Virus record (IMG/VR): IMGVR_UViG_2529292726_000025
Coordinates: 1 to 32,158 of that record
Strand: one strand, 5' to 3'
DNA: 32,158 nucleotides
Origin: a virus
Lineage: Duplodnaviria; Heunggongvirae; Uroviricota; Caudoviricetes
Positions 1-27,290 of the stretch are shown here, piece after piece (the stretch's first letter is position 1; the number at the start of each line of letters is the position of its first letter). The notes below the pieces were generated by a model. It saw only the letters and a program-made list of their open reading frames with translations, did not search any database and was not told the DNA's origin. Position numbers and translations under genes: made by a program.

Positions 1-1236
1 CTACGATAACCGCGCATTCAACATGGCTATCTGTTCGTCGTTCATGTCATCAATCCACATACCGTAAATTTCATACCCCATCTGCGCAGTTTCATGCCCC
101 ATTTGGCTGGCTATAAATGCCGGGTTCGCTCCTGCCGTCAACAGCCAGCAGGCAAAAGTATGCCGCGTATGGTACGGATTACGGCGGCGAATACCAGCAC
201 GTTTTACTGCTGCATTCCACCTTGCCCCCAAACTGCTTACCGAGTAATAAGGTTTTTGTTTTCCGTTACACACCCTGGGCATGAAAACAAAATGCAGTTT
301 TTGCTTTTCGGTTCTGCCGTACTCCCGATGATAAAAGGTGATTTCGCTTTTGCGATGATGCCCGGTCAGTTTGTATTGCTCCTTCAGTGCTTCAAGAGCA
401 GGCTGCAGTAGTGTTACTGTTCGGATCCCGGCATTTGTTTTTGGGGGACCGAACATATCAAGTATCGTCAGGTTTCTTCTGACATTCCCTATTCCCTTTT
501 CGAGATCCACATCCTCCCACGCCAGAGCTGCCAGTTCCCCGTGACGAAGTCCTGAGTAAACGGCAAATTTCCACAAGTTCTGGCTCTGTCCTTTTTCACT
601 TTCCATTAATGCATTGAATTCTGTTTTAGATAACGGATCAGGCTTTATTCTGTTTCGCTGTAATTTTTTTACTCCTTCAAATGGTTTAGTTGATATAAAT
701 CCCGACTGATACGCAAAACGCAACAGCGAACAGAGCAGGGCGATATAGTTATCAACTGTGCGCACGGTTCTTCCTTTTTTGTTGGATCTTGGATTATCCA
801 GGTAAAGCGTTTCTCCATGCAGCAGTTCATTCCGGTAGTTTAAGATATCGCTATAACGAATATGTGATATCGGGGTACTTTCACAAATTATTATTCTGAG
901 TGTTTTTAATTGTGATTTCGTTTTCTTCATTGTGTTTGTTGTTAACTCTGTCTCTTTAATTTTTGTCCAGATATCACAAAGCTCTCCGAACGTTTTTATG
1001 ACTCTCGTTGTCACCATTTTTGCCCCAGTGCTGGACTGGGGAAAACGTCTTAAATACTCAAATTCACCGGAGTTTATTTCATGAACTATCAGCGATCTTA
1101 AATTTCCGGCCTTTTTAATATTACTGTTTGTAATCTCCCAGCCTTTTAATGTTTCCCGACATCGTTTTCCTCGAAACATGAACCAGATGCGAATGTATCT
1201 ACCTCTAATCTCGACACCTGTTGGTAATTTAGACAT
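1..1236 (-). CDS. intR: Phage integrase, tyrosine recombinase (Rac IntR-like), complete 411 aa
   Basis: Full ORF with stop at window start. C-terminal catalytic signature NPYHTRHTFACW...YEIYGMW (HxxR...Y). Followed by xis, ralR, recT, recE in Rac-prophage order. Confidence 0.88.
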   Translation of the reverse strand: MSKLPTGVEIRGRYIRIWFMFRGKRCRETLKGWEITNSNIKKAGNLRSLIVHEINSGEFEYLRRFPQSSTGAKMVTTRVIKTFGELCDIWTKIKETELTTNTMKKTKSQLKTLRIIICESTPISHIRYSDILNYRNELLHGETLYLDNPRSNKKGRTVRTVDNYIALLCSLLRFAYQSGFISTKPFEGVKKLQRNRIKPDPLSKTEFNALMESEKGQSQNLWKFAVYSGLRHGELAALAWEDVDLEKGIGNVRRNLTILDMFGPPKTNAGIRTVTLLQPALEALKEQYKLTGHHRKSEITFYHREYGRTEKQKLHFVFMPRVCNGKQKPYYSVSSLGARWNAAVKRAGIRRRNPYHTRHTFACWLLTAGANPAFIASQMGHETAQMGYEIYGMWIDDMNDEQIAMLNARLS

Positions 1237-1237
1237 A

Positions 1238-1453
1238 TCATGAGTCTTTGATAAACTGATTTATCTTTGGATAGTTGTACCAGATAATCCCTCGTTTGCT
1301 GTCTGGCTTACCTAAAGGAGATACTCGTTTGAAGTGGAAGCCCTCCACCCAACAGTTCTGGCGGTATGCTTCAATTTGTCTGGCCCCCAGACCAGTGCGA
1401 AGCATCAGGCCGTATTCAACCATCCACTCTTCATTAAAGATTACTTGTGCCAT
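1238..1453 (-). CDS. Excisionase-like small DNA-binding protein (XisR/YdaQ-like)
   Basis: 71-aa ORF ([15 protein letters not shown]...) immediately upstream of int on the same strand, the typical int-xis arrangement. Start chosen at internal ATG 1453; the track ORF extends to 1477. Confidence 0.6.
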
Positions 1454-1531
1454 CGCATCACCTCTGGCAGGCGCCAATGTTAGACTGAAATTGACGCCCG
1501 ATGTTGATTATTAATAATCAGCTATGAAGTT

Positions 1532-1753
1532 TTAATTTGAATACAATGCAATTCTCGAGGACTGAAGTTTCTCGCAATTAAAATTTATCAGTTTTACTTT
1601 CTGCTCTCTGGAAACGCCTGCTTCTTTTTTACCTGAGAGCATTTTTTCGCATTCTGATTTCGTTAGTTTAGATTTTGAATATCTTGTCCAGTTAGTAGGA
1701 GTGCCACCTTCCTTTTCAATAGTGGCGGTAATTTTATACATGAACACCTCCAT
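1532..1753 (-). CDS. Small prophage protein (YdaC-like), hypothetical
   Basis: ORF between xis and ralR in Rac-like synteny. Start ambiguous (1813, 1753 or 1741); overlaps the ralR 3' end. Confidence 0.4.
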   Translation of the reverse strand: MEVFMYKITATIEKEGGTPTNWTRYSKSKLTKSECEKMLSGKKEAGVSREQKVKLINFNCEKLQSSRIALYSN

Positions 1754-1928
1754 TATTATTTCCAGTGGTTCGTTTATTCCATCTTTCGAGTGCTTCTTTT
1801 TCACTTCCACCATAACCGGTTCGGGATTCGCATCCGTTACACTTCGCTCGGTAATATCCTGAAATGGCTTTCACCGTTACTGATGGACAACCACAAAATG
1901 GACATGGTTTAACATTGTCATATCTCAT
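1734..1928 (-). CDS. ralR: RalR/Lar-like restriction-alleviation protein and type I toxin candidate, 64 aa
   Basis: Sequence MRYDNVKPCPFCGCPSVTVKAISGYYRAKCNGCESRTGYGGSEKEALERWNKRT with a Cys4 zinc-ribbon-like pattern. Located directly downstream of recT as in Rac. Confidence 0.72.
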   Translation of the reverse strand: MRYDNVKPCPFCGCPSVTVKAISGYYRAKCNGCESRTGYGGSEKEALERWNKRTTGNNNGGVHV

Positions 1929-1984
1929 AATTTTTCTCATAAAAAATATTTCAAGTTGGCGGTGCATTACACCGCCAGGCTGAA

Positions 1985-2794
1985 TTATTCCTCTGAATTA
2001 TCGATTACACTGTATTCCCCGGTTAATACAGAGGAATCTGCAGGATCGATTGTCAGTGGTTCCTTTTCATCCATTGATACTGCACGCTGGATCTCAATTG
2101 ATACGGGCAGATATTTGAACAGGCGACGAATAGCCGTTTTCTTTGCCATTTCTTCCCAGTGAGTTACCCACGGCCCGTTATTACCAGCTTTACTCAGGCT
2201 GCGCACCAGCTCAATCTGTTTGCGCGTCATAACTTCAAACTGAGTACCTCCGTCTTTCAGTCTTGCGACAGCATAGACGTGGGTAACCGGGGCATCTTCG
2301 TTTTCTCCCGGGCGGTGTATTAACTTTTCATCAAGGCCAAATTCGAAGCTAAACTCGTCACCTTCACGGACAACACGGGCTGACAGGCTGGCGATTTGAC
2401 CAGAACGGCGAGCCAGATCAATCATGCCGCGATAGCCAATGATTAGCTGAACGTTCTTTTTACCGCTCTTTTCGTTTTTATTACCAAAAGGCAGTAAATA
2501 TGCATGACCGAGGGCGCTACCTGGCTCAAGTCCGAGCTGTGAACACTGTACGATCGCACTGACAAAACTCATAGTGTCACAGTTTCCTAACGCCGGAACT
2601 TTACGAATTTCTGTGGTGGCGATACGGATCATACGTTCAGCCGTCATATGGCGTGGAAGAGCTGCTGCCAGTTGCTCTTTCATTGATGGCTGGTTAATAA
2701 AACTAATCACGTCGCTATTTTTAACTGCTGCTGGTGCACGGTTTCCCTGAGTTTTTTGCAGATCGGCTTTTGCGATTGGTGGTTGCTTAGTCAT
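1985..2794 (-). CDS. recT: RecT single-strand annealing recombinase, 269 aa
   Basis: Begins [35 protein letters not shown] and runs full length. Start overlaps the recE stop, indicating an operon. Confidence 0.9.
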
Positions 2795-5450
2795 TTGCAT
2801 ATTCCTTAGCCCAGCGGGGCAGTGATAATGTCTTAATAGCTGGCCATTCATCGGTATTCAGGCAGTCAGACAGGGTTCGCAGATTGCGGTGATATTCCTG
2901 TTGACCTGCCAGTTTTGCTTCTTCGCCCATCATGAAAATTTCAACCGGATAACGTCCGCATTCAATAGTTGTGCTGGCAACCAGAAAAACGAAAGTTGGC
3001 TGCACTCCAAACTGTGCTTCATAACCGTCACTGTAGAATGCATCCTGAACGTGATAGCGGTAGTCGTAATAAGCGGTTTTGAATCGTTGAATATCCGCCG
3101 TAGTTTTCACGTCCATGATCCAGTGAAATTCAGGGATAATTTTGTCCGGACGGCACCGACACAAAATTCCTGTTTCAGGATCTTCCCAGTAAATTGATGA
3201 TTCAGCGTGTCCGGCGCTTTCAACAAGCCATTGCCCCAGCGGCAAAGCCATAACGCTTTGATACATGAGTTCAATTTTCCGGCCTTCTTCCGCAGTGATA
3301 ACCGTTTTTCCTGTGCTTGCGCATTCCATCAGAAACGCTTTCTCTTCTTCTTTTCCGGCGTTTGTACGGCGGTTAAATTCAGGTGCTACGATAAAGCGGT
3401 TACTGAATTCTTCCGGTTCAAGTACCCGGCAGTGGAAAGCAGTTCCTAAATCGAGCGTTTTTGTCTTTGTGGTGTCCACGGGGGCATTTTTACGCCACAA
3501 ATATAGTGCCGGAGTATCAGCAATGTCATCGAGCTGAGACTTACTGATACCGGGACCCGCGTGGTAATTCTCATTCGAAATTCCGTAATAAATACCTGGC
3601 TCTATGTCTTCTACGATTACGGGATCTGCGACTTCGCCAGTTTCATCACTGCAATCGCGATGCGGATCGCTGCCAGCATTCTCATTGTGCGGATGTTCAG
3701 CGCCTTCCATTTCCTCCGGATCATTTTCCTTAGCTTCAACCTGACTCTCTTCATCGAATGTTTCCTGGTATGTTGCGTCGCCCATCACCGCACCACAGTC
3801 AGGGCAGTTATCCCCGCCAGTCTGGCCGCAGGCATTGCAGGCTATTTCCGGTTCCTGTTGCACTACTGGCTCAGGTTGATTCATATCTGGGCTGGTTTTT
3901 TCCGTTTCTGGCTGGTTCTGGTACACACAATCGCGAGTCTGGATCCCCTTTACCCATTTCGGATCGTTCGGGTCGCTAATTCCGTCAACAAATTCACCAC
4001 GTGATGCAGCAAGCAACTTATTGGCGTCAGGCTGGCTGATATTGGCTGCCTGCATAATTTTGTTTACTTCGTCAGCGGTAACTTTTACCGGCTCTGGTTG
4101 TGCGATCGTGTCAGATGCACCAGTATTTTGTTGTGAACCTGAGTACGTGCCGTTTTTACGTGCGAAGTATTCCTCTTTTGTGATTTCCGTAGCTCCCAGG
4201 GCCAGTGCTTTTTCCAGACCAGAAAGTTTGTTTGCGCGACCGTATTTTTCGCCGTCCTTATCGGTGAAAAGGAAGTAGAACGGTCCCTCACGCTCTACAG
4301 ATGGTTCGTCTTCCACTTCGCATTCGGTTTTTTCGTTGTCCGGCATTGCCGTTTCCACTGCATCAGTTTCTGGTACTGGTGACGGGAGAGTACCAGCTGT
4401 GCCCTGATTTGTTCCTTCGTCATCTTCAAACACGCCCTTGGTAGTCAGGTATTCAGTGATGTATTTGTTCAGTGCTACGGGATCTTTGTGAATGTCGATC
4501 GGACGCTCACGGACAAGGCCAAAAATAGTCTGACGGTCGTAGCGAACGGCATCGGGTTGTTTGCGCATTGATGCGGAAATGCGCTTCCAGTCTTCGCGAT
4601 CTTTGTCGATAACTTCATTTTTTGCCCAGCGATGGATGCTGCCGTCAATGTTTCCGGTATCAATATCGCCAGGCCAGAGAGCGTAGGCCAGTTCTTCATC
4701 CAGCGTTTTCCATGTCTGCTTGTATTCGCGACAAATGGCGGCAGTGACTGGGTTGATTTTTCCTGCTGAGTTTTCAGTGTTCTGTTGATTGACTCTGGCG
4801 CTGGCGAGATCAACAACAGACGTGTATTTTCCAGTCTCTTTGCGCTCTGCGTCCTGCCGTTTTTTCCAGTTACGTAATTCAGCCTGAATTTCGGGCCATT
4901 TGGCACCCGGATTACATTTGTGTTTAACCCATCCGATAGCGAACAGTTTGCGTTCCGGATACATAGCGTTAATTTCAGGCGTTTTCATCAGTGCTTCAAC
5001 GATATGCCCGTCAAAGGTAGCAACGTCTTCCTGCAGTAATTCCTGCGCGTCAATCGCCATATCAACGGTGATGTTTTCACATGTACCGAACTTAACCAGG
5101 ACCGCGTTCTGTACTTCAAGGGACAGCTTGTCAAAATTGACGTTCATCGGATCGGATTCTGGTTCGACCGGAATAAAGGAAGCGGATTCCTCATCCCAGC
5201 GGTTTTCCTGCATATATTCAGCATCCCAGGAATCGAGGGCAGGGCGGGGTATACCGGGTTTATCCTCGCAAACAAGAAATTTATAAGCGCAGTCCTGAGC
5301 AGCCGGATAATGTTCCAGGAATTGCCAGTGAAATTTTGCGCGGGCGCGACGTTCATCACCGGCTTCAATGGCAGTGGCTACAGCGACGGCACCTTCTTCC
5401 TTTATTGCCTGTTCGTCCGGAATGGCGGCGCAAATAAAGACTTTACTCAT
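2787..5450 (-). CDS. recE: RecE exodeoxyribonuclease VIII-like 5'-3' dsDNA exonuclease, 887 aa
   Basis: Very long ORF partnered with recT. The C-terminal two thirds match my recollection of RecE (...[30 protein letters not shown]...[23 protein letters not shown]...). The N-terminal region is acidic and divergent. Confidence 0.85.
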
Positions 5451-5545
5451 TTTGTTTTAACCTCATTACAGATTTCAGGGTGAACGAATCCCTGCCATTG
5501 CTGGCATTTTTAATCCGTTGGTATGGTGTTAATATGGCTGGAGGG

Positions 5546-5734
5546 TTATCCAGCCGGTGTTTCGTTATTCAGGTACAGCGATACTTTTTTTAGCGGGAGG
5601 CATTCACCAGAAATTTTTTGCTCGTCTCTTGCCTGGAGGCAGGATTCTTTACTTGCATAAATTCCGGTAATCACATTCTGTGATTCACCCGTTATAAGAA
5701 AAACCGTCATCATCAGTGCAAATGCTGAAGTCAT
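5546..5734 (-). CDS. Small protein with hydrophobic N-terminus (YdfD-like), 62 aa
   Basis: ORF overlapping the dicB-like stop by 4 nt. N-terminal hydrophobic segment MTSAFALMMTVFLITG. Confidence 0.45.
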   Translation of the reverse strand: MTSAFALMMTVFLITGESQNVITGIYASKESCLQARDEQKISGECLPLKKVSLYLNNETPAG

Positions 5735-5919
5735 TGACGTTCTCCGAAAATACCAAGTTCAAGAAGAGCAATTCGGGAAAGTATGGAATTATCATTGAGC
5801 AGATAAGGCTCATATTTCCTCATATTAATGGCATCTTCAGTAAACTCCCGGTTACTGAGCAGAACACCAATATCAAAACAACCTTCAGACGTATTAACGT
5901 TTGGTAATAACGTTTCCAT
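5731..5919 (-). CDS. dicB: DicB-like cell-division inhibitor, 62 aa
   Basis: METLLPNVNTSEGCFDIGV...FTEDAIN closely resembles my recollection of DicB (MKTLLPNVNTSEGCFEIGV...). Shine-Dalgarno GAGGA 7 nt upstream. Lies downstream of a DicF-like sRNA signature. Confidence 0.6.
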   Translation of the reverse strand: METLLPNVNTSEGCFDIGVLLSNREFTEDAINMRKYEPYLLNDNSILSRIALLELGIFGERQ

Positions 5920-6095
5920 TATCGCGTCCTCAACAATGAATTTTGTGATGCAGTGCCTGGTGCCTCCAGGTGACGTTAACCAGTTAACAATTAACGCCGG
6001 ATTAGTTGATGCTCGTTACGCCCGTAAAATACCGCCTTACTGCTTTAACTGTTCCGCGTGCGCATAGCCGCATTCACCGCATCACAAAATTCACT

Positions 6096-6137
6096 TTAAA
6101 AAGGGCGGATATCCGTTTCCGCCGAATCACCAGAAAA
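6096..6137 (-). ncRNA. dicF: DicF-like small RNA candidate
   Basis: Minus-strand sequence UUUUCUGGUGAUUCGGCGGAAACGGAUAUCCGCCCUUUUU. It has the DicF-type 5' motif UUUCUGGUGA, then a GGCGGA/UCCGCC hairpin and a U-run. Sits between ydfABC-like genes and dicB-like, as in Qin. Confidence 0.5.
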
Positions 6138-6438
6138 GTGATAACAGAGGGCGTTGCTGCGGGGTTGTCACTTAAGCGTATGGTCAACCTGACAACCCGG
6201 TGTCCTCAGCGGGGAAGGAATAACCCCGCCATACTTACCGCCGCGCCATTTCGCGGATTGCCACAACCGGAAGCGCACGGTCGAATTAAATTTAACGACT
6301 ACCTACAGAGAGACGAACTTCGCCGTGCGCTTTCGCGTTATGCCCTGACTTTTCAGGGATATATCCTTTTCAGTAAACTGTCAGTGCCGGATTCTTATCC
6401 GTGTCCGGCGCACGCACTCTACCTCACCTGTGAATAAA

Positions 6439-6813
6439 TTAATGATTAATTGATATTTTGTTGTTTGATTCAACTTTCCCATCGGATGTGTGATGCTTTA
6501 AATCACAGGAATTAATACTGCTTGCTGTAAAATGATTTTCAAGGGGAGCTATTCGAATCCCTTTCTTTTTCATTAACAAGCCAAATCCTTTATTAAGGAT
6601 GTCCATTAATTCCAGGAAGTATTTTTCATGTAAATCCTGGTTATCAGAGAGCTGCTTCTCTTCGCACAGACCGATAAAGGCACGACGCACGTTACCGGAT
6701 ATAGTATCGATGGTTTCTTTTTCTACGGTACTCAGGTCAAGAGTCGCCAGTTGGGAACGAACTATATTCGCTGCCATTTCCTGGAATTGCATTGGTAAAT
6801 CTTTAAATTCCAT
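6439..6813 (-). CDS. Hypothetical protein, 124 aa
   Basis: ORF between the ydfC-like gene and the DicF-like region on the PL-like operon strand. No recognisable motifs; the C-terminal part is low-complexity. Confidence 0.35.
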   Translation of the reverse strand: MEFKDLPMQFQEMAANIVRSQLATLDLSTVEKETIDTISGNVRRAFIGLCEEKQLSDNQDLHEKYFLELMDILNKGFGLLMKKKGIRIAPLENHFTASSINSCDLKHHTSDGKVESNNKISINH

Positions 6814-6835
6814 TATTAGCCTCGTTGGTTAGCTA

Positions 6836-7054
6836 TTAACGCGGGCATGTAATCATTCTGGCAATGCTTAATGCCGCTGCTTTTTCCAGCCTGGTGATAT
6901 CCTGCTCCAGAGCGGACAGATTTTCAGCCTGCTTAGCCCTGGCTTCATTGGCCCATTTCAGGTCCTGCGCAGCCTTAATTTTCTGGTGCATCCACTCATA
7001 AAGTTCATCATCGGTATAGTCTGGCGCGATGATGACGGGTTCTCGTTTCTGCAT
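6836..7054 (-). CDS. YdfC-like small prophage protein, 72 aa
   Basis: 72-aa ORF (MQKREPVIIAPDYTDDELYEWMHQKIKAAQDLKW...) following ydfA-like and ydfB-like ORFs, in the Qin dicB-operon order. Confidence 0.5.
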   Translation of the reverse strand: MQKREPVIIAPDYTDDELYEWMHQKIKAAQDLKWANEARAKQAENLSALEQDITRLEKAAALSIARMITCPR

Positions 7055-7083
7055 ACTGATTCCTCGCGGTGCTGCTTCGCTTA

Positions 7084-7212
7084 TCAGCCGTTAGATTTTG
7101 CCGGGCTGGAAAGCGCCTGTATAAACTCACTGAAGCTGAGAGCTTCTTCGCCTTTGGCAAGGCCTTCGAAGTATTCTTCGTAAGCCTTTTCCATGATTGT
7201 GTCGAAATCCAT
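7084..7212 (-). CDS. YdfB-like small acidic protein, 42 aa (below the ORF-track cutoff)
   Basis: Found by manual translation of the minus strand: MDFDTIMEKAYEEYFEGLAKGEEALSFSEFIQALSSPAKSNG. Tightly packed between neighbouring genes. Confidence 0.45.
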   Translation of the reverse strand: MDFDTIMEKAYEEYFEGLAKGEEALSFSEFIQALSSPAKSNG

Positions 7213-7213
7213 A

Positions 7214-7369
7214 TCACTCACCTGAGTTTCTTTCCAGCCAGCGACGGGCACCATTTTCGGTTTTAAACGTTTTGCTTTTGGTATACGTCATCGCGGTGAA
7301 CGTACCGTCCTGGTTGGGGAACACGCCACATACCAGAGATTCGTTGTTGCCAAGATCGATAGTATCCAT
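7214..7369 (-). CDS. YdfA-like small protein, 51 aa
   Basis: Internal start of the 78-aa track ORF gives MDTIDLGNNESLVCGVFPNQDGTFTAMTYTKSKTFKTENGARRWLERNSGE. First gene of the leftward operon. Confidence 0.5.
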   Translation of the reverse strand: MDTIDLGNNESLVCGVFPNQDGTFTAMTYTKSKTFKTENGARRWLERNSGE

Positions 7370-7575
7370 GTTGACCTCATTTCCCCTTAACGCCGGGGTA
7401 GCGGAACAAAAACCTGCTGCATAGTTATTAAAGTTGAACCCTGCCGTCATGTTCTTACGCCTCGGGCTGGCTACTTAACCCCTGACCACTGCCGGGTAAC
7501 TCGAAGTATTGCCCTGCATTCTGTGGGGTGGAGTGAAGGAATGAATGAAGTTTAGAAAAATGAACTTTACAGGTC

Positions 7576-7597
7576 AATGTTTTTTTATCAAAACATT
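7576..7597. promoter_or_regulatory. Palindromic operator candidate (AATGTTTT-N6-AAAACATT) in the PL-like region
   Basis: Perfect 8-bp inverted repeat in the AT-rich gap between the repressor gene's 3' end and the first leftward gene. Confidence 0.35.
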
Positions 7598-7661
7598 TTA
7601 GGCAGGCAGCTGTTAAGCCATCACCACGATGGCATACAGTTAATCAAATAGATGAGGTTGG

Positions 7662-8300
7662 TTAAATATCTTGTTGAATTTTAAAGCATACGCCCAATAT
7701 GCAAGATAGATCATCCAGCATAATTGAAGGGTAGCGAGGATTCGTGGGGACTAAAAGAATATCCGGCCCTTCTATCTCCAGTTTACGAATGACAGGTGTT
7801 GTGGTCCCTTTGGGTAAGGCAAGGACAATATTTCCTGGTTGTACGGTTCGATCGGGATCAACAAAAACTGTTGAACCATTTGGGATGGAAACTCCTCCAC
7901 CAGATGTTGACATACTGTCACTCTCTAGAACAACTGCAAAGGTATTGGCCGGGATTTCTCCGACAAGCTGCACACAAGAGGTTATTGAGGAATTTTTCAT
8001 ATAATCACTCCAGCTTGCTGCCTGCTGAAGTGATAGTAGCGGAACCGTTTTTATCGGCGGTAAAGATAGATCAAGCGAATCACCTGTATTTAACTCTCCT
8101 CCATTAAGAAGCCAATTTTCGTTTACTTTCAATATCTTTGCCAGTGAACTTATGTAACGCGAGGACGGCGCTCCTCCACCGTTCATCCATTGACTTACGG
8201 AGCCTTTTGATGCGCCAGTGGCATTGACAAGGTCTTTGCCTTTCAGGTTTAGCGCATGCATACGTTGGGTTATGCGTTCAGATATTGTTTGCTTGCTCAT
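7662..8300 (-). CDS. CI-type prophage repressor: XRE helix-turn-helix plus S24 (LexA-like) peptidase domain, 212 aa
   Basis: N-terminal HTH (LKGKDLVNATGASKGSVSQWMNG) and C-terminal S24-like region containing the Ser/Lys dyad (LESDSMS... LALPKG...VIRKL). Divergent from a cro-like gene. Confidence 0.85.
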   Translation of the reverse strand: MSKQTISERITQRMHALNLKGKDLVNATGASKGSVSQWMNGGGAPSSRYISSLAKILKVNENWLLNGGELNTGDSLDLSLPPIKTVPLLSLQQAASWSDYMKNSSITSCVQLVGEIPANTFAVVLESDSMSTSGGGVSIPNGSTVFVDPDRTVQPGNIVLALPKGTTTPVIRKLEIEGPDILLVPTNPRYPSIMLDDLSCILGVCFKIQQDI

Positions 8301-8391
8301 GTTTTGATTTTAAAACACAGATGGTTTTGTTTCTTGACTTTCTTTGGTTTTGATTATTAAACTTTTGGCGTTCAGTTTTATGGAGCGACTC

Positions 8392-8622
8392 ATGAAAAAA
8401 TCAGAAGTATTAGGCTATTTTGGCGGAGTTGTTAAAACAGCCGCAGCTCTAGGAACGTCAAAAACCACAGTCAGCATGTGGGGGGAAGAGGTTCCGTGGA
8501 AATGGGCGTTGCTAATTCAGGCAGTCACTGCCGGGGCGCTCAAATATGAGTTACACATACCGACGGTTGTCATTCCCGGTTCTGATCATAATCCGCCTTC
8601 TAACCAAGGGGGGGATTCATGA
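8392..8622 (+). CDS. Cro/YdaS-like small HTH regulator, 76 aa
   Basis: Divergent from the repressor. Start ATG 8392 with GGAG Shine-Dalgarno. HTH-like segment VVKTAAALGTSKTTVSMW. Confidence 0.6.
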   Translation: MKKSEVLGYFGGVVKTAAALGTSKTTVSMWGEEVPWKWALLIQAVTAGALKYELHIPTVVIPGSDHNPPSNQGGDS

Positions 8623-9044
8623 AAATCAAGCATGAACACATCCGCATGGCGATGAATGCCTGGGCGCATCCGGACGGCGAGAAAGTACCGGCTGCAGAGA
8701 TTACCAAAGCGTATTTCGAGCTGGGAATGACGTTCCCGGAACTGTATGACGACAGCCATCCGGAAGCCCTGGCTCGCAATACCCAGAAAATTTTCCGCTG
8801 GGTAGAGAAAGACACCCCTGATGCAGTTGAAAAAATTCAGGCGTTGTTACCAGCGATCGAAAAGGCAATGCCACCTTTGCTGGTGGCCAGAATGCGCAGC
8901 CACAGTTCTGCTTATTTTCGGGAGCTGGTGGAGACGCGGGAGCGACTGGTGAGAGACGCTGATGATTTTGTCGCAGTGGCAATCGCCGGTTTCAATCAGA
9001 TGAACCGCGGTGGCCCGGCGGGAAATGCCGTGGTGATGCACTAA
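8619..9044 (+). CDS. YdaT-like protein (proposed CII-position regulator or toxin of Rac-type prophages), 141 aa
   Basis: ORF overlapping the cro-like stop. N-terminus MKIKHEHI as I recall for Rac YdaT. Sits in the cro / ydaT / O / dnaC order. Confidence 0.55.
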   Translation: MKIKHEHIRMAMNAWAHPDGEKVPAAEITKAYFELGMTFPELYDDSHPEALARNTQKIFRWVEKDTPDAVEKIQALLPAIEKAMPPLLVARMRSHSSAYFRELVETRERLVRDADDFVAVAIAGFNQMNRGGPAGNAVVMH

Positions 9045-9067
9045 AAGCACGGTGTTCGGAGTTTTTT

Positions 9068-10015
9068 ATGAGCAGCAAGCTTCATGGTCTTGTCTGGGAA
9101 GGGTGTGCCTTCACCGGCATGATCTTATCCAGGGTGGCAGTTATGGCTCGCCTTGCAGATTACAGCAATGACGAAGGTGTGTCATGGCCTGCAGTGGAGA
9201 CCATTCGTCGTCAGATTGGGGCAAAGAGTGAATCAACGGTTAAAGCTGCGATAGCAGAACTGGAAAAGAACGGCTGGCTGACGAAGGAGGAACGTAAGGT
9301 CGGTGGGCGTAATGAAAGCAATATTTACCGTCTTAATGTGGAAAAACTCGAAGCAGCAGCAGCGGCAGCGCGTGAGGCATATAAACCGAAAAGAAAAATT
9401 AGCCAGGCAAAAAATGACCCGTCAAATATTGCCCCCTCAACGGTTAACCCATCAAATTTTGATGGATCAACCGTTGATAAAAAACAGTCGGATAGGGGGG
9501 CGATGGTTGGCCCCGATCCGTCAGTATTAAAACCTGATCCGTCAGATAAAAGATCTTTTCGTCCGGAAGCTTCGCAACCGGACATGCAGACGGCTGAACA
9601 GGATTTTTTAACCCGACACCCTGACGCGGTTGTGTTCAGTGCGAAAAAACGCCAGTGGGGTAGCCAGGAAGATTTAGCGTGTGCGCAGTGGATCTGGGGG
9701 CGAATCGTGAGTCTTTACGAGCAGGCCGTCAGCGATGATGGCGAGATTTCGCGACCGAAAGAACCCAACTGGACCGCATGGGCCAACGACGTGCGCACAA
9801 TGCGGATGCTGGATGGCAGAACTCACAGACAAATTTGTGAAATGTTTGGTCGGGTGCAGCGGGATCCATTTTGGGTAAAAAATATCATGAGTCCGTCAAA
9901 GCTTCGCGAAAAATGGGATGAACTGGTTATCCGCCTGGGGCGTTCGTCTGTACAGCGTTGTGTGAATCATATTTCTGAGCCGGATACCGAAATTCCGCCG
10001 GGGTTCAGGGGGTAA
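9068..10015 (+). CDS. Replication initiation protein (lambda O-like / YdaU-like) with internal iteron region, 315 aa
   Basis: Located immediately upstream of the DnaC-like gene. N-terminal winged-helix-like region. Central repetitive linker (DPSNI / NPSNF / DPSVL / DPSDK) encoded by DNA iterons. Confidence 0.65.
   Translation: MSSKLHGLVWEGCAFTGMILSRVAVMARLADYSNDEGVSWPAVETIRRQIGAKSESTVKAAIAELEKNGWLTKEERKVGGRNESNIYRLNVEKLEAAAAAAREAYKPKRKISQAKNDPSNIAPSTVNPSNFDGSTVDKKQSDRGAMVGPDPSVLKPDPSDKRSFRPEASQPDMQTAEQDFLTRHPDAVVFSAKKRQWGSQEDLACAQWIWGRIVSLYEQAVSDDGEISRPKEPNWTAWANDVRTMRMLDGRTHRQICEMFGRVQRDPFWVKNIMSPSKLREKWDELVIRLGRSSVQRCVNHISEPDTEIPPGFRG
9411..9552. repeat. Iteron array (candidate replication origin) inside the O-like gene
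   Basis: Four to five spaced copies of a GA(C/T)CC(G/A)TCA(A/G)(A/T)T-like motif: gacccgtcaaat, aacccatcaaat, gatccgtcagta, gatccgtcagat. Confidence 0.5.
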
Positions 10016-10021
10016 CGGGCC

Positions 10022-10768
10022 ATGAAAAATATCGCGGCAGGTGGTGTTCTTGAGCGTATCCGTAAGCTGACCCCGCAGCATGTAATCGCGCCGTACCGGA
10101 CAGTGGACGAGTGGCGCGAGTGGCAACTGGCAGAAGGGCGAAAACGTAGCGAGGAGATCAACCGCCAGAATCGCCAGTTGCGGGTGGAAAAAATCCTGAA
10201 TCGTTCGGGCATCCAGCCTCTGCACAGCAAATGCTCGTTTGCGAATTATCAGGTGCAGAACGACGGGCAAAAACACGCGCTGAGCCAGGCAAAATCCATC
10301 GCTGACGAACTGATGACCGGGTGCACGAATTTTGTGTTCAGCGGTAAGCCGGGTACCGGAAAGAACCACCTTGCAGCCGCCATTGGCAATCATCTTCTGG
10401 CGAAAGGTCGCAGCGTGATTGTGATAACGGTGGCTGATGTGATGCTGGCGTTACACAACAGCTACGACAACAAAAACTCAGGCGAAAAATTTTTACAGGG
10501 GTTGTGTGATGTTGACCTGCTTGTCCTGGATGAAATCGGAATGCAGCGGGATACGCGCAACGAGCAGGTCACGCTGAACCAGATAGTCGACCGCAGAACG
10601 GCTTCGATGCGTAGTGTCGGAATGCTGACGAACCTTAACCACGTAGCGATGAGTACGCTTCTTGGCGAGCGTGTAATGGACCGCATGGTCATGAACGGTG
10701 GTCGCTGGGTGAATTTTAACTGGGAGAGCTGGCGTTCGAATGTCAGACACCTGAGGGTTGTGAAGTAA
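10022..10768 (+). CDS. DnaC-like helicase loader (IstB-type AAA+ ATPase), 248 aa
   Basis: Walker A FSGKPGTGKNHLAAAIG and Walker B DLLVLDEIG. Immediately downstream of the O-like gene. Confidence 0.85.
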   Translation: MKNIAAGGVLERIRKLTPQHVIAPYRTVDEWREWQLAEGRKRSEEINRQNRQLRVEKILNRSGIQPLHSKCSFANYQVQNDGQKHALSQAKSIADELMTGCTNFVFSGKPGTGKNHLAAAIGNHLLAKGRSVIVITVADVMLALHNSYDNKNSGEKFLQGLCDVDLLVLDEIGMQRDTRNEQVTLNQIVDRRTASMRSVGMLTNLNHVAMSTLLGERVMDRMVMNGGRWVNFNWESWRSNVRHLRVVK

Positions 10769-10782
10769 TTTCAGGAGGATTT

Positions 10783-11178
10783 ATGGCGAAACCTTTTTCT
10801 CTCGAACAGCGGGAAGAGCTGAAGGCACGAATTATCGGGTTGGTACGCAAAAATGAACGCATGACGATGTCGCAGCTGGAGAGAGCGACAGGGGCAGGCT
10901 GGCACTCGGTCCGACGCTGCCTTGTGGATGTGCTGGCTTGTGGCGATTTATACATGTCCGGGGAATACGGTGTTTTTGCATCAGAGCAGGCGTATCGCGT
11001 ATGGCGTAAGACACCGGAGAAAAGAACCGACCTGACACTGATTCGAAAGTTACCAGACGGAGAAATACGCCGCTACGACAGGAGCCAGAACATAATCTGT
11101 CGCGAGTGCCGGAAGAGTGAGGTTATGCAGCGAGTGCTGGCGTTTTATCAGGGTAATTTTCAGGAGGTGATGGCGTGA
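10783..11178 (+). CDS. Hypothetical prophage protein with possible HTH, 131 aa
   Basis: ORF with AGGAGG-type Shine-Dalgarno. Segment MTMSQLERATGAGWHSVRRCL is HTH-like. No catalytic motifs. Confidence 0.4.
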   Translation: MAKPFSLEQREELKARIIGLVRKNERMTMSQLERATGAGWHSVRRCLVDVLACGDLYMSGEYGVFASEQAYRVWRKTPEKRTDLTLIRKLPDGEIRRYDRSQNIICRECRKSEVMQRVLAFYQGNFQEVMA

Positions 11179-11525
11179 GGGTGAGAGTCTATATCGCCGG
11201 TCCAATGACCGGGTATAAAAATTTCAACCGTGAGGCGTTCCACAATGCGGAAGAGGAACTGAAACGGGAAGGGCATACCGTCTTAAACCCGGCAGTACTT
11301 CCGGACGGGCTGACACAGCCGCAGTACATGGATATCTGCATGGCAATGATACGCAGCGTGGATGCGATTTATATGCTGAAAGACTGGCAACGGTCAGCAG
11401 GCGCTAAAGCGGAACTGGCTCTGGCGGAGAAACTGGGGCATGTGGTTATTTTTCAGAGGGGGGCGATATGCCGATTCTCTGGCTTCAGGAGGTGTGGGAA
11501 AAAGAAATGTGGGAAGGTCTTGTGA
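11175..11525 (+). CDS. Conserved prophage protein (DUF4406 / nucleoside 2-deoxyribosyltransferase-like N-terminal motif VYIAGPMTG), 116 aa
   Basis: GTG start 8 nt after AGGAGG. N-terminal RVYIAGPMTGYKNFNREAF motif. The C-terminal tail is basic and odd, and overlaps a possible small membrane ORF (11468-11617). Confidence 0.4.
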   Translation: MRVRVYIAGPMTGYKNFNREAFHNAEEELKREGHTVLNPAVLPDGLTQPQYMDICMAMIRSVDAIYMLKDWQRSAGAKAELALAEKLGHVVIFQRGAICRFSGFRRCGKKKCGKVL

Positions 11526-11620
11526 TTGTGGCCGAAACAGTTCTTTTATTATGGTCTGTGATTGCGTGTATTTTTATGATTTATTGTGAATGGTGTGAAT
11601 CTCGCGGTGGCCACTGAATT

Positions 11621-11663
11621 GCAACCATTACCCCCTGTGATGTAACTGTGGGGTAATGGTTGC
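11621..11663 (+). promoter_or_regulatory. Perfect 14-bp inverted repeat (stem-loop or operator candidate)
   Basis: gcaaccattacccc - 15 nt - ggggtaatggttgc. No U-run follows, so it is not a classical intrinsic terminator. Confidence 0.4.
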
Positions 11664-11681
11664 GCAGGCATAGCGACAGGA

Positions 11682-12119
11682 ATGGATGAGAAAAATATGA
11701 CGAAATTTACCAGAGAGCAATTGATTGCTCATGCTAATGAAAGTGTGAAATCCATGAAATTTGCTGCGCGACAGACCGTGTTTAAGACTTCAAGAGTTGC
11801 CATTGAAATGGATCTTGAGCTTGCCCGTATTGCGCTTGCCTCACTTGAAGCAATGCCAGTTGCATGGTCCTGTGCTCACAATATGGTTTTGTTCAATGCT
11901 GAATCTGTTGCGGCATACGCAAAACACTCAGCCATTGCGCCAAAACCCCTGTACGCTGCGCAACCGGCATCACTTTCACATGAGGAAGAGTTGACAATGC
12001 TGGTTAAACAATTGGTAAGTCAGTTGAAAAAAGCGAAACCAGATTGCAAATTACCGGATATGGCGATGGGGTATCTGGAGCGGAATGGGCTGATAAGCGC
12101 GGAGGATGTTTTACGATGA
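11682..12119 (+). CDS. Hypothetical prophage protein, 145 aa
   Basis: ORF with plausible start. No recognisable motifs. Confidence 0.4.
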   Translation: MDEKNMTKFTREQLIAHANESVKSMKFAARQTVFKTSRVAIEMDLELARIALASLEAMPVAWSCAHNMVLFNAESVAAYAKHSAIAPKPLYAAQPASLSHEEELTMLVKQLVSQLKKAKPDCKLPDMAMGYLERNGLISAEDVLR

Positions 12120-12410
12120 CCTGGCCGGAGGCATTCACAACGACAGGAATTGCAATGGCGGCAGCACTTGTTGTGTATTCGATTTGCCGCTGGGGATAAA
12201 AACGGTTTGCAGTGAAAGGGGAGTTAAGTAGAATTGCTGCGGGTGCTTGAGGCTATCTGCCTCAGGCATGAACACCAAAAGGCAGATAGAGAAAAGCCCC
12301 AGTTAACATTACGCGTCCTGCAAGACGCTTAACATTAATCTGAGGCCCAATCTATGTCTCACAAATGTAGGTTAGCCTCTTACGTGCCGAAAGGCAAGGA
12401 GAAGCAGGCT

Positions 12411-12566
12411 ATGAAGCAGCAAAAGGCGATGTTAATCGCCCTTATCGTCATCTGTTTAACCGTCATAGTGACGGCACTGGTAACGAGGAAAGACCTCTGC
12501 GAGGTACGAATCCGAACCGGCCAGACGGAGGTCGCTGTCTTCACAGCTTACGAACCTGAGGAGTAA
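12411..12566 (+). CDS. hok: Hok/Gef-family type I toxin (membrane peptide), 51 aa
   Basis: MKQQKAMLIALIVICLTVIVTALVTRKDLCEVRIRTGQTEVAVFTAYEPEE is a canonical Hok-family sequence with a single transmembrane helix. An in-frame upstream extension to 12354 exists. Confidence 0.8.
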   Translation: MKQQKAMLIALIVICLTVIVTALVTRKDLCEVRIRTGQTEVAVFTAYEPEE

Positions 12567-15263: not shown

Positions 15264-16018
15264 ATGGAAGAACAGCACGGTAATTACTTTATAAAACGAA
15301 TTCAGTTGATTGGAAGGGGTGCATTTGGCTTTGTTGAACACGTTAAGGTTTACAACCTCAACAAGGGTGAATGTGGGGATTATGCTAGAAAGGTGAAAAA
15401 CCAGAGCTTTTGGCGCAAATAGAGCAGTTTAGAAGGCGTTTTAAAAGGGAGGTCGTGTATCAATCACATTGCGTACATAGCAATATTGTTCCTATTTATT
15501 TGTGCGATTTGTTTGCCGAGAATCCATGGTTCATTATGGATAAAGCAGAATGTGATCTTGAGCACGAAATAACGAACAACCTTCTTACAACAGATCAAAA
15601 AATTTCAATAGTGAAAATGGTATTAGATGGTGTAGCTCACATCCATGCGAAAGGCTATTTACACAGAGATATAAAACCATTTAATGTCTTGCGATTTAGC
15701 GACGGAACATACAAGGTGTCTGATTTTGGTCTGGTAAAAGATACAAATCCCGAAGGGGATACCACTAAATTGACCGAGATCGGTACCCGTATGGGAAGTA
15801 CAAGATATATGGCTCCCGAGATTTTATATAATGCCGAGTATTCAGTTAAGACTGATGTTTATGCGGTGGGGCGGTTAATTGAGGACTTAAATTTAGATGA
15901 TAAAAAAATAAAGCCTATCATAGCGAAGTGTACCAGGATGGATAAAGATGATAGATATCAGACAATAGATGATGTGGCGTTTGATTTTGTGCATTCTTTT
16001 TTAAGGAGTGAGTCATGA
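15264..16018 (+). CDS. Hanks-type (eukaryotic-like) Ser/Thr protein kinase, interrupted by a -1 frameshift in an A5 run (15396-15400)
   Basis: Glycine loop IGRGAFGFV, beta-3 lysine YARKVK, catalytic loop HRDIKPFN, DFG (VSDFGL) and APE (YMAPEIL). The N-lobe fragment 15264-15422 and catalytic fragment 15410-16018 are in different frames. Confidence 0.8.
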
Positions 16019-16758
16019 TTCAGCTGATAGCGACTTCATCATTCTCGTATCCAAAAGAACCAGGTAGGGTCAACGAAGATTCATTGCTTCCTCCCAAAAT
16101 TGTAGGGGATGGCATCTTATTTGCCGTAGCTGATGGTGTAGGTTCATACACTGGTGCCAGTCAGGCTTCATCAATGGCAATTGCTGAACTTTCAGCATTG
16201 ACAAGCTTATCTTTTGACACAGTTCCGGATGTATTTGATGAAGTTAAGCGAAAGGTTATGTCGTTAGCTGATGTTAATGATGAGTTCGATAAAGCTGCTA
16301 CTACACTTACGTTTTGTTATGTTTGTGATAGCGGAATTATTATTGGTCATATTGGTGATTGTCGTTTGTATTGCATTGGAGAGAAGAAAGCATACCAATT
16401 GACGAAGGACGATACCAGGCATCAGATGCTAATTGATCAGAATATTTTTAAACCCAGAGATTTGAAGGATAAACCGGGCAAAAATATCTTAACGACGGCT
16501 ATAGCCTCAAATGTTGATATGGAATACGACTGTGATTTTATCACATGGAAAGATTTACCTAGTATTAACGGGGTATATCATCTGTGTATCATGTCTGATG
16601 GGGTTCATAACGTTTGGGAAAAACGCCCCAGATTTACATCAAATACGATGAGTAATAGTCAGAAGTTTTCTAATGGCATTTTGCGTCGTATAGAGAGAGC
16701 CGGACCTGATGATGACTTTTCTTTAGTAAGTATAATGGTGCGTGTGACGTCAGATTAG
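16015..16758 (+). CDS. PP2C-family (PPM) Ser/Thr protein phosphatase, 247 aa
   Basis: PPM motifs NEDS, FAVADGVGS, HIGDCRLY, MSDGV and PDDDFS. ATGA start/stop overlap with the kinase indicates translational coupling. Confidence 0.8.
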   Translation: MIQLIATSSFSYPKEPGRVNEDSLLPPKIVGDGILFAVADGVGSYTGASQASSMAIAELSALTSLSFDTVPDVFDEVKRKVMSLADVNDEFDKAATTLTFCYVCDSGIIIGHIGDCRLYCIGEKKAYQLTKDDTRHQMLIDQNIFKPRDLKDKPGKNILTTAIASNVDMEYDCDFITWKDLPSINGVYHLCIMSDGVHNVWEKRPRFTSNTMSNSQKFSNGILRRIERAGPDDDFSLVSIMVRVTSD

Positions 16759-17844: not shown

Positions 17845-17906
17845 TACGGTCAGATGGGGGTACTTATGGGGGTATTTACTGTTCGGTTTAGTGGAGGTAC
17901 CCCCAA

Positions 17907-19121: not shown

Positions 19122-19772
19122 AACAACTGGACAAGTATACAGAGGTTTACTAAAGTATAGGGGAGTAGATTGATAAAAACTCACAGAGGATTACTATTTA
19201 ACAGTTAGCCCTGGAGAAGGGCAATCGCTCTTTTAACAACGAAGATGGAATCTTCTACGCAGCTGAAAAGCTGGATGCTCTTTAACAGCCTTTGGTGCTT
19301 TCCTGATGCAGGAAAGAATAGGGATACATGCACCTTTACAATGCATGTAATGATTCATCCATGAGGCTGCGGATCGCTGACAAAGCGCAATTGCTCTTTA
19401 ACATTGATGTGGGCGGGATGGTTCGTCCCGCAGTGACCGATAGATTTCTATCGGGAAACATACAATGATTCAAATATGAATCTACGGCGCTGACAAAGCG
19501 CAATTGCTCTCTTGCCTGCCCACCATGCCCTGAAAAAGGGCGTTCTTTAAAACTACTGGATGTCACGCCTAATAGCGTGATCCTGCCGAAATGCAGGGTA
19601 GCTCTACCCTTGTGGAGCAAACAAACCAAAACAATCTGACTATCTTTTATAAAAGACCGCAATATGTTTTTCATATTGTGGTCTTTGGCGTATTCGACAT
19701 TTGATGCAAATAAAACTCTCGCCATTCGTTGCAGGAGGGAGTTATTGCGTCATTAGTACAGGATATTAATAA

Positions 19773-19976
19773 ATGGCTAATTACAATTCATTAATTCGTC
19801 TCTCTGAAGTTCAAAGGCGAACTGGTTATAGCAAAGCATGGATTTATCGTCTTATTAGTCAGGGGAGGTTCCCTAAACAGGTAAAAATTGGAAGTCGGGC
19901 AATTGCTTTTGTTGAGTCTGAAATAGATGAATGGATTGAGAAGTGTATATTAGAATCTAGAGACGAGGTGGCCTGA
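19773..19976 (+). CDS. alpA: AlpA-family transcriptional regulator / excisionase-like protein, 67 aa
   Basis: LIRLSEVQRRTGYSKAWIYRLISQGRFPKQVKIGSRAIAFVESEIDEWI is a typical AlpA/Xis MerR-like HTH. Downstream of a P4-type int. Confidence 0.8.
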   Translation: MANYNSLIRLSEVQRRTGYSKAWIYRLISQGRFPKQVKIGSRAIAFVESEIDEWIEKCILESRDEVA

Positions 19977-20407: not shown

Positions 20408-20419
20408 CGGAGACTGAAA

Positions 20420-27286: not shown

Positions 27287-27290
27287 ATCA

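Follow-up and report, generated by a model that had tools for sequence, protein, structure and literature searches.

A dicB-type cell-division-inhibitor operon in an Escherichia coli prophage, with one additional gene and a shortened DicF locus

The region described here is an ordinary cell-division-inhibitor operon of an E. coli prophage, of the dicB type; it is a known module, and its unusual points are limited to one extra gene and a shortened DicF locus without the ftsZ-silencing sequence. It lies in IMG/VR virus record IMGVR_UViG_2529292726_000025, and by the window we mean the whole stretch of 32,158 nt that was analysed. On the minus strand come, in this order, ydfA, ydfB, ydfC, an ORF of 124 amino acids, about 520 nt of non-coding RNA, dicB, a ydfD-like gene and then recE-recT-ralR-xis-int, with the gene for a cI-like repressor upstream of the operon and co-oriented with it. 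The features are as follows.

7662..8300, minus strand: cI-like repressor with a helix-turn-helix and an S24 LexA-type peptidase (Pfam Peptidase_S24, 50.5 bits, and HTH_3; 'LexA family protein' in a near-identical genome)
7549..7577, minus strand: sigma-70-like promoter TTGACC-17-TAAACT, a candidate of the dicBp or pL type (consensus scan)
7214..7369 (ORF extendable to 7450), minus strand: ydfA, 51 aa, DUF1391 (Pfam, 99.4 bits; ydfA by PGAP on identical DNA)
7084..7212, minus strand: ydfB, 42 aa (PHROG 2061, 1.8e-27; collinear with K-12 ydfB)
6836..7054, minus strand: ydfC, 72 aa (PHROG 1744, 2.4e-39; PGAP 'protein YdfC')
6439..6813, minus strand: 124-aa accessory gene between ydfC and the dicF leader (PHROG 6937, 5e-77, 'unknown function')
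6137..6438, minus strand: structured precursor leader of about 300 nt, homologous to the K-12 ydfC-dicF leader
6098..6136, minus strand: short DicF-locus allele, UUUCUGGUGAUUCGGCGGAAACGGAUAUCCGCCC followed by UUUUU, syntenic with K-12 dicF
5920..6097, minus strand: structured dicF-dicB spacer with a 20-bp long-range closing helix (STnc100 match sub-threshold)
5731..5919, minus strand: dicB, 62 aa, a MinC-dependent division inhibitor by family membership, with a divergent C-terminus (Pfam PF05358, NCBIfam NF049927)
5546..5734, minus strand: ydfD-like small protein, DUF1482 (PF07358), 62 aa, with a hydrophobic N-terminus
2787..5450, minus strand: hybrid RecE-type exonuclease, 887 aa, with a Qin-YdfE-like N-terminus and the C-terminus of Rac RecE (Pfam DUF3799/PDDEXK)
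3900..4021, no strand: crossover interval between a Rac-derived arm and a dicB-carrying prophage backbone (blastn)

Much of this layout had been proposed in a first-pass annotation. The three ydfABC-like ORFs of 51, 42 and 72 aa are all present on the minus strand at the positions that it gave, and the run of the operon into recE-recT-ralR-xis-int is upheld by the ORFs and by the NCBI annotation of identical DNA; E. coli 510016 carries a 100%-identical stretch with a matching gene annotation. The RalA sRNA accompanies ralR (Rfam, 225 bits). The candidate promoter stands upstream of ydfA, and TTGACC also occurs at the K-12 counterpart.

The closest characterised relative is the dicBF operon of the K-12 prophage Qin (Kim), ydfABC-dicF-dicB-ydfDE, with which the window is collinear. 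DNA identity is 86-96% over the alignable blocks (ydfABC, the leader and spacer, and the start of ydfE/recE), with 95.6% in the ydfA block and about 86% over 5815-6432; with flanks homologous to this degree, the pattern is not due to chance. The two share the leader, the base of the terminator and the dicF-dicB spacer, and ydfE, at the downstream end in Qin, corresponds to the N-terminus of the window's exonuclease. They differ in that the window has the added 124-aa gene, a DicF locus of 34 nt (53 nt in K-12) that has had its interior replaced or deleted and that the Rfam model RF00039 does not recognize, a cI/LexA-type S24 repressor in place of DicA, and an intact exonuclease gene that continues into the Rac genes recT-ralR-xis-int. 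The products of the last two genes before the exonuclease have also diverged, as described next.

The 62-aa ORF proposed as DicB-like proved to be a genuine DicB. Over its full length it scores 125.5 bits with Pfam PF05358 (cut-off 27) and 114.2 bits with NCBIfam NF049927 (cut-off 100), and it is 63% identical to K-12 DicB overall; the divergence lies in the C-terminal half, where the last 27 aa are unlike those of the K-12 protein that has been characterised. Judged from its family membership, this DicB allele would inhibit the Z ring in a MinC-dependent manner. The small hydrophobic YdfD-like ORF was likewise borne out (DUF1482, 54 bits, cut-off 25); its product is 44% identical to K-12 YdfD and its gene overlaps dicB by 4 nt at the dicB stop codon. 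The 124-aa gene, which the first reading could not place in Qin, indeed falls in a gap of the K-12 alignment between ydfC and the dicF leader, as an insertion of about 375 nt. No match to its product was found in Pfam, NCBIfam or PADLOC, and a profile search of PDB sequences gave an insignificant best match (E = 0.49). Homologues are confined to Escherichia, Salmonella and Enterobacter. The N-terminal half is common to variants of 133 aa, and variants of 109 aa align over about 106 residues with a different C-terminus. An AlphaFold2 model built from a 20-sequence alignment has three helices and a disordered tail, with a mean pLDDT of 57, too poor for a fold search.

It had also been suggested that a Qin-like dicBF operon was grafted onto Rac-like recET. 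The left arm is Rac, since window positions 1388-4021 are 99.9% identical to K-12 Rac (blastn); the graft itself has to be redrawn, with the junction inside recE. Residues 1-255 of the exonuclease are 87% identical to K-12 Qin YdfE, and the adjacency of dicB, ydfD and an exonuclease gene is therefore ancestral. Residues 475-887 are 100% identical to K-12 RecE, and the NCBIfam equivalog PRK09709 gives the whole protein 990.7 bits, below its cut-off of 1269. With a RecE C-terminus behind a YdfE-like N-terminus, the nuclease domain is, by sequence, a member of the family and the protein as a whole a mosaic. Positions 3900-7700 match the prophage at the ompW site of E. coli 510016 with 99.6% identity (blastn), and Rac recET is joined on through homologous crossover within recE.

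At the position of dicF, between ydfC and dicB and with the conserved processing leader ahead of it in the syntenic K-12 alignment, stands an element of 34 nt plus a U5 tail, comprising a 13-nt single-stranded 5' end, a 6-bp stem and an 8-nt loop. With DicF it shares only nt 1-10 and the terminator base GGCGG...CCGCCCUUUUU, the inner stem-loop being replaced. The GC-rich 6-bp stem followed by UUUUU has the form of a Rho-independent terminator, and a terminator scan matches 6123-6104; the predicted fold (-10.7 kcal/mol, against -15.9 for K-12) is that of a weaker terminator. The first-pass annotation had read a DicF-like sRNA signature here and had itself named an Rfam scan, beforehand, as the first half of a refuting test. 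Over 2.5 kb that scan with RF00039 gave no match, either at the gathering threshold or at E<=10; restricted to 101 nt, it scored the short allele at 16.6 bits, where the cut-off is 48, and deleted 17 inner positions of the model. For comparison, K-12 DicF scores 76.7 bits, an E. albertii variant 43.5 and the terminator of the Rac sieB-kilR region 39.1. What stands of the signature is the syntenic locus, nt 1-10 and the terminator base; the ftsZ-antisense part is absent. A simple deletion of canonical DicF was considered as the origin of the allele and rejected, as the 5' arm has four substitutions and the allele has its own diversified spacer haplotype. Missing dicF annotation was also discarded as evidence, since PGAP annotates no dicF even on canonical copies. 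A literature search on truncated or variant DicF found nothing relevant.

The consequences for target recognition can be judged from what is known of DicF, which uses its 3' region to pair with ftsZ and pykA, and its 5' end for xylR (PMC5069750). In K-12, ftsZ control is abolished by DicF9, a mutation that breaks up the pairing predicted between the 3' region and ftsZ, and is left in place by DicF3, a mutation at the 5' end (PMC5069750). Pairing was assessed by scans for contiguous helices and 20-nt windows in place of whole-length RNAduplex. With canonical DicF these scans recover xylR at nt 5-17 (13 bp), pykA at nt 26-45, manX at nt 35-53 and ftsZ at nt 33-52; with the short allele none of the four sites is found. 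The segments that pair with ftsZ, pykA and manX are absent from its alignment, and half of the xylR site is lost, the 13-bp duplex shrinking to about 6 bp, GGUGA(U).

The RNA on either side of the short allele is structured. The leader (6137-6438) has a minimum free energy of -127.9 kcal/mol (z = -3.4). In K-12 the operon RNA is processed by RNase III as well as RNase E, and a 190-nt species arises through an RNase III site situated about 137 nt upstream of DicF (PMC10448788). The DNA between the sRNA and dicB had been called rich in hairpins, and the spacer is in fact strongly structured (-85.5 kcal/mol, z = -5.8 against shuffles); its 20-bp closing helix is probably an RNase III substrate. 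In an RNAalifold consensus of 22 haplotypes this helix persists with one-sided changes alone; two compensatory pairs occur in an inner hairpin. The 3' end of a reported 72-nt DicF (53+19 nt; PMC5069750) would land in the 5' strand of the predicted helix. The spacer aligns end to end, GUCACCUGGAGGCACCAGGCAC hairpin included, with the Rfam STnc100 model (RF02076), at 31.2 bits and E = 2e-4, below the cut-off of 47 bits and with its central part not conserved; the K-12 and Rac homologues score 28-38 bits. Eleven copies of STnc100 are given in the ncRNA table of EDL933 (PMC5331693). In Rac, the sieB-kilR intergenic region shares with the window the terminator base and the downstream structured leader, here ahead of kilR, an FtsZ-directed inhibitor different from dicB. 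The DicF 5' seed is missing there and the hairpin interior is different and longer, although the region scores above the window's element with the DicF model. Among paralogous loci, the hairpin interior varies, and the base and downstream leader are conserved. A shared terminator and RNase III-type leader before both dicB and kilR suggests that prophage division inhibitors have a control cassette in common.

The short allele is present in 442 of 5,426 complete E. coli genomes (about 8%), O157:H7 strains among them, and in 43 IMG/VR contigs, as 31 haplotypes in diverse contexts. O157:H7 strain Z563 has the module with the 124-aa gene and the short allele at 98.5% identity. Related dicB-carrying lambdoid phages and prophages of pathogenic E. 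coli also include ompW-site prophages (PPompW). At ttcA, the prophages of O55:H7 TB182A and strain 2013C-4991 have the order dicB, DUF1482, recE, recT, ralR, xisR, intR, and phage Tritos has CI, ydfABC, DicF, dicB, ydfD and exonuclease VIII in the order of the window; unlike the window, Tritos and O55:H7 have the canonical 53-nt DicF. For EDL933, four DicF copies are listed, every one a long form of 52-56 nt (PMC5331693). The exact two-parent combination of the window occurs as a single piece in no complete genome of the set, the best match having 80% coverage and 94% identity. A scan anchored on the seed would be biased towards seed conservation, and it was therefore repeated with a 3'-anchored pattern that leaves the seed unconstrained. 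The 41 independently sampled loci obtained in this way show no variation from -14 to +13 relative to the mature 5' end, and 8 of the 16 columns just upstream of this block vary. A pure terminator does not need such a block, which hints at a retained seed or processing function.

We consider it probable, taking these comparisons together, that the region is the Qin-collinear early-left (pL-type) operon of a lambdoid prophage, with DicB as its inhibitor, a short element that is mainly a terminator and processing site, and a crossover in recE. Inactivation of the cI-like S24 repressor would allow leftward transcription from the promoter near 7549-7577. The transcript would cross ydfA, ydfB, ydfC, the 124-aa gene and the structured leader of about 300 nt before meeting the short intrinsic terminator that occupies the place of DicF. 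Homology with K-12 suggests that read-through would proceed via the structured spacer of about 180 nt, with the closing helix as the likely RNase III site, and such transcripts would then reach dicB, the ydfD-like gene, recE, recT, ralR, xis and int. DicB, with MinC, would act on the FtsZ ring and inhibit division, as expected of its family. The short allele would serve mainly to limit dicB expression, as an intra-operon terminator and processing site and not as an ftsZ antisense RNA; the ground for this is that the inner stem-loop, with the experimentally mapped sequences that pair with ftsZ, pykA and manX, has been lost. The most likely arrangement would be division inhibition by DicB alone.

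The first-pass annotation implied instead a DicF-like antisense sRNA that blocks ftsZ translation and inhibits division jointly with DicB. The syntenic position, the identical first 10 nt and the shared terminator base speak for this, and on paper nt 1-8 can pair with the ftsZ Shine-Dalgarno region in a G-U-rich helix of 8 bp. Nevertheless, the low covariance-model score and the loss of the very segment that pairs with ftsZ in K-12, where the DicF9 and DicF3 phenotypes place ftsZ control in the 3' region and not at the 5' end, make it very improbable. The best duplex with the ftsZ leader is also weaker than most shuffled controls, although whole-length RNAduplex energies are dominated by long looped duplexes and discriminate poorly. 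One might also argue, from the missing inner stem-loop and from the toxicity of the operon, which would select for its disablement (PMC5069750), that the prophage is degenerating and that the element is what is left of a decayed dicF, without function. We regard this too as improbable, if less so: 31 haplotypes have kept an intact hairpin and U tract, with changes that maintain the pairs, the adjoining dicB, ydfD-like gene and recE are intact ORFs, and the allele has diversified as a lineage and is not a single, isolated deletion.

A better case, though still for an unlikely reading, can be made for a functional, Hfq-dependent, trans-acting sRNA (a 'mini-DicF') that would use the 13-nt 5' seed on a regulon without ftsZ, in addition to terminating transcription. 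The -14 to +13 block is invariant even where the search left the seed unconstrained, and the neighbouring leader and the loop vary; the hairpin is maintained through a wobble change (GGUGG), the U5 tail is as in K-12, the processing leader upstream is conserved and the allele is widespread. Against it, the match to DicF is limited to nt 1-10, the xylR duplex is halved and the ftsZ, pykA and manX sites are gone, and the invariance of the block could equally follow from pairing predicted within the precursor, between this block and the beginning of the leader. It is with considerable doubt that we raise the idea of a distinct, selectively maintained sRNA lineage that has shed ftsZ, pykA and manX targeting and kept an invariant 13-nt 5' seed.

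The module as such is well known, and public sequences identical to it already carry the dicB annotation. The short allele, however, is invisible to Rfam-based annotation. As dicF copies in pathogenic E. coli are counted from Rfam or BLAST matches to the 53-nt form, such counts miss the truncated allele, which hundreds of genomes carry ahead of an intact dicB. If the allele is only a terminator, these prophages would inhibit division via DicB alone; if it is an sRNA, EHEC would gain one further DicF-family regulator with a different target range. Should the proposal of an sRNA lineage be true, sRNA regulation by these prophages would have been separated from division control, and EHEC would possess an uncounted DicF paralogue.

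The minus strand of the window carries the genes listed below (ORF listing of positions 1–12000), in the order that the first-pass annotation had claimed for them.

Open reading frames of the dicB operon and the genes that follow
7214–7450 (51-aa form 7214–7369), minus strand: ydfA, DUF1391 (Pfam)
7084–7212, minus strand: ydfB, 42-aa ORF, matches PHROG 2061
6836–7054, minus strand: ydfC, 72-aa ORF, matches PHROG 1744
6439–6813, minus strand: orf124, 124-aa ORF (ORF listing)
5731–5919, minus strand: dicB, 62-aa ORF, Pfam PF05358 and NCBIfam NF049927
5546–5734, minus strand: ydfD-like 62-aa ORF with a hydrophobic N-terminus, DUF1482, overlaps dicB
2787–5450, minus strand: exonuclease gene, 887 aa; then recT, ralR, xis and int

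The operon is real, was correctly placed, and is essentially an ordinary dicB operon. Its DicB passes both curated cut-offs, matching PF05358 over the full length (125.5 bits against 27) and NF049927 (114.2 bits against 100), and the assignment made on first reading stands; identity to K-12 DicB is 63% overall: the first 35 residues are almost unchanged, and it is in the C-terminal part that the two proteins diverge. The small hydrophobic YdfD-like protein is likewise present, scoring 54 bits on DUF1482, where the cut-off is 25, and sharing 44% identity with K-12 YdfD; the ydfABC block has 95.6% DNA identity to K-12. No convincing ORF is listed in the ~520 nt between orf124 and dicB. A prophage of E. 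coli strain 510016, annotated at NCBI as ydfA, hypothetical protein, ydfC, hypothetical protein, dicB, DUF1482 protein and exonuclease, matches positions 5400–7700 at 100% identity, and one carried by many O157:H7 genomes matches them at 98.5%. Among 5,426 complete genomes of E. coli, 175 have 80% or more of the module. At 7662–8300 (minus strand) lies a cI-like repressor gene, a 212-aa ORF with HTH and S24 domains. In the near-identical strain 510016 the annotation shows no more than a 112-aa ‘LexA family protein’ and a cro-like gene with a frameshift, so that the immunity region may be damaged there and intact in the window. Opposite ralR, Rfam detects the RalA antitoxin RNA (1557–1735, plus strand; 225 bits), one of two type I toxin-antitoxin RNAs, the other being sok (12241–12416, plus strand; 121.7 bits), which adjoins hokD.

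Aligned pairwise with Qin of K-12 (NC_000913.3), the minus strand shows a collinear operon, homologous to dicBF. K-12 Qin differs in having no orf124, as the first-pass annotation had correctly stated; in the window, ~375 nt holding this gene are cleanly inserted after ydfC and before the long dicF leader. The orf124 protein belongs to PHROG 6937 (‘unknown function’; 5e-77) and has no match in Pfam, NCBIfam, PADLOC or PDB sequences; its homologues, from Escherichia, Salmonella and Enterobacter, are all annotated ‘hypothetical protein’. Variants of 133 aa have the N-terminal half in common with it, and those of 109 aa, alignable over ~106 residues, depart from it at the C-terminus alone. The AlphaFold2 model, three helices and a disordered tail, is of low confidence (pLDDT 57). 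Because other prophages have different genes between ydfC and the dicF leader, some of them antisense, this position looks like an accessory-gene slot.

The element at the DicF position is a truncated, Rfam-negative allele, termed here the short allele. K-12 dicF (positions 4383–4435 of the Qin sequence L002) is UUUCUGGUGACGUUUGGCGGUAUCAGUUUUACUCCGUGACUGCUCUGCCGCCC followed by U5; at the syntenic place in the window (6136–6098, minus strand) the sequence is UUUCUGGUGAUUCGGCGGAAACGGAUAUCCGCCC followed by U5. DicF nt 1–10 and the GGCGG...CCGCCC terminator base are retained, with substitutions in the 5' arm and without the inner stem-loop of the K-12 element. The fold (−10.7 kcal/mol; K-12, −15.9) comprises a 13-nt single-stranded 5' end, a 6-bp stem and an 8-nt loop; the terminator-like hairpin is intact and is detected by a terminator scan. 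The earlier reading of a DicF-like sRNA does not survive the covariance model, since the window stays under the Rfam cut-off of 48 bits: it has no match at the gathering threshold, none at E ≤ 10 in 2.5 kb of it, and at best 16.6 bits, with 17 inner model positions deleted, when the search is limited to 101 nt. As a control, K-12 dicF scores 76.7 bits; the terminator between sieB and kilR in Rac, which is not regarded as DicF, reaches 39.1 bits on RF00039, under the cut-off. We found no description of the truncated allele in the literature searched. A third allele, in E. albertii (L014:4612–4661), has a complete 5' region, with nt 5–17 for xylR pairing, and a different inner loop that lacks the ACUCCG anti-Shine-Dalgarno motif; at 43.5 bits it falls just below the Rfam cut-off.

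The target-pairing segments of DicF have been lost. A pairing scan (simple helix plus 20-nt-window duplex, with sites compared with those of Balasubramanian et al.) places on canonical DicF the sites for xylR (nt 5–17, 13 contiguous bp), pykA (nt 26–45), manX (nt 35–53, 13 bp) and ftsZ (nt 33–52), and finds none of these on the short allele, where the xylR duplex is reduced to GGUGA. Duplexes formed by the short allele and the ftsZ leader over their whole length have energies that do not improve on shuffled controls. Judged from sequence, the short allele would therefore be unable to act on ftsZ as DicF does.

A 71-nt query spanning the short allele is covered to at least 80% in 442 of the 5,426 genomes; the canonical form occurs in 3,979. 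PGAP annotates neither, so that a missing annotation is uninformative. E. albertii has the short allele too, as do 43 viral contigs of IMG/VR, which give 31 haplotypes. It has its own version of the dicF–dicB spacer and is present both with and without orf124; it is a diversified lineage rather than a single recent deletion. In a scan anchored on the 3' half of the hairpin only (41 loci), no variation occurs in the 27 nt that surround the expected mature 5' end (−14 to +13), eight of the 16 columns directly upstream vary, the hairpin loop is polymorphic (C/U), and there are two stem variants, one of which keeps pairing via wobble. An invariant block beside a variable flank and loop argues against pure decay; a seed or a role in processing may have been kept. 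Pairing with the start of the leader would account for the invariance equally well: in the predicted fold of the precursor (6098–6445, minus strand), the DicF 5' region and the preceding 14 nt pair with the first ~20 nt of the leader, directly after the orf124 stop codon, and the differences found in K-12 affect both strands of this helix and partly compensate each other. A residual sRNA role for the short allele is possible, and we consider it rather unlikely.

The structured leader is conserved. Its ~300 nt are homologous to those of K-12 (~86% identity over 5815–6432) and fold better than shuffles (z = −3.4); in K-12, a 190-nt species arises from RNase III cleavage of the leader, and the 5' end of the 53-nt form is generated by RNase E (PMC10448788). 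The spacer between the terminator and dicB, described at first reading as rich in hairpins, is indeed strongly structured (z = −5.8). It is dominated by a 20-bp long-range helix in which GUGAAUUUUGUGAUGCGGUG, directly 3' of the terminator, pairs with CACUGCAUCACAAAAUUCAU, which directly precedes the Shine-Dalgarno sequence of dicB. In a set of 22 distinct haplotypes (Qin, short-allele, Rac and Shigella types), this helix is maintained by one-sided changes only (G-U to G-C, U-A to U-G), and an inner spacer hairpin shows two compensatory pairs. We infer that the published 3' end of the 72-nt DicF (53 + 19 nt) lies in the 5' strand of the 20-bp helix, as RNase III cleavage predicts. Rfam STnc100 is sub-threshold on the spacer in all loci tested (28–38 bits against 47). 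The Rac sieB–kilR intergenic region (L004:4956–5172) has the same terminator base and the same structured leader ahead of kilR, so that the terminator-plus-leader cassette seems general in front of prophage division inhibitors.

The operon had also been read as Qin-like dicBF grafted onto Rac-like recET. There is a Rac-derived arm, positions 1388–4021 having 99.9% DNA identity to K-12 Rac; the junction, however, lies inside recE. Exonuclease residues 1–255 are 87% identical to K-12 Qin YdfE (an IS2-truncated pseudogene downstream of ydfD), and residues 475–887 are 100% identical to K-12 Rac RecE. Positions 3900–7700 have 99.6% identity to the ompW-site prophage of strain 510016, and the remaining window to ~31.6 kb has 99.9% identity to that strain. 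With Rac identity to the left and 510016 identity to the right, the arm appears to have been joined by homologous recombination in the conserved central recE segment (3900–4021). Nor is the adjacency of dicB, ydfD and exonuclease a product of grafting, as it is ancestral to Qin-type phages: phage Tritos has CI, ydfABC, an annotated 53-nt DicF, dicB, ydfD and exonuclease VIII, and O55:H7 TB182A and strain 2013C-4991 have at the ttcA site the full order dicB, DUF1482, recE, recT, ralR, xisR, intR. The exact two-parent combination, found in one piece nowhere in the complete-genome set, is ordinary lambdoid mosaicism; since the two parental prophage sites have the same orientation and are separated by only about 100 kb of E. 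coli chromosome, the clean junction may stem from inter-prophage exchange or be an assembly chimera.

Further along the window, a protein-kinase-domain gene overlaps a PP2C-family phosphatase gene (15410–16758, plus strand) just downstream of the Q antiterminator gene. A separate integrase-bearing element (~17900–31600; integrase 17907–19121) is inserted after the lambdoid prophage's Q gene and a truncated DNA-methyltransferase gene; it encodes an AntA/AntB antirepressor, a TOPRIM-DUF927 primase and P22-like ejection proteins, and this block alone is found at 99.8% identity in many otherwise unrelated E. coli genomes. Positions 21803–22288 (plus strand) are a P1-type c4/icd module, and the window thus has a second, unrelated division inhibitor: Rfam detects isrK (67 bits) and C4 antisense RNA (79.5 bits), directly upstream of and overlapping a gene annotated in a 99.9%-identical genome as ‘host cell division inhibitor Icd-like protein’.

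The RNA element of the short allele is most likely an attenuator and processing site. The S24/LexA-type cI-like repressor (7662–8300) would control a promoter near 7549–7577, and transcription would be partially terminated at 6098–6123; read-through RNA would be processed in the 20-bp helix, leading to expression of dicB, the ydfD-like gene and the recombination genes, and division would be blocked by DicB through MinC.
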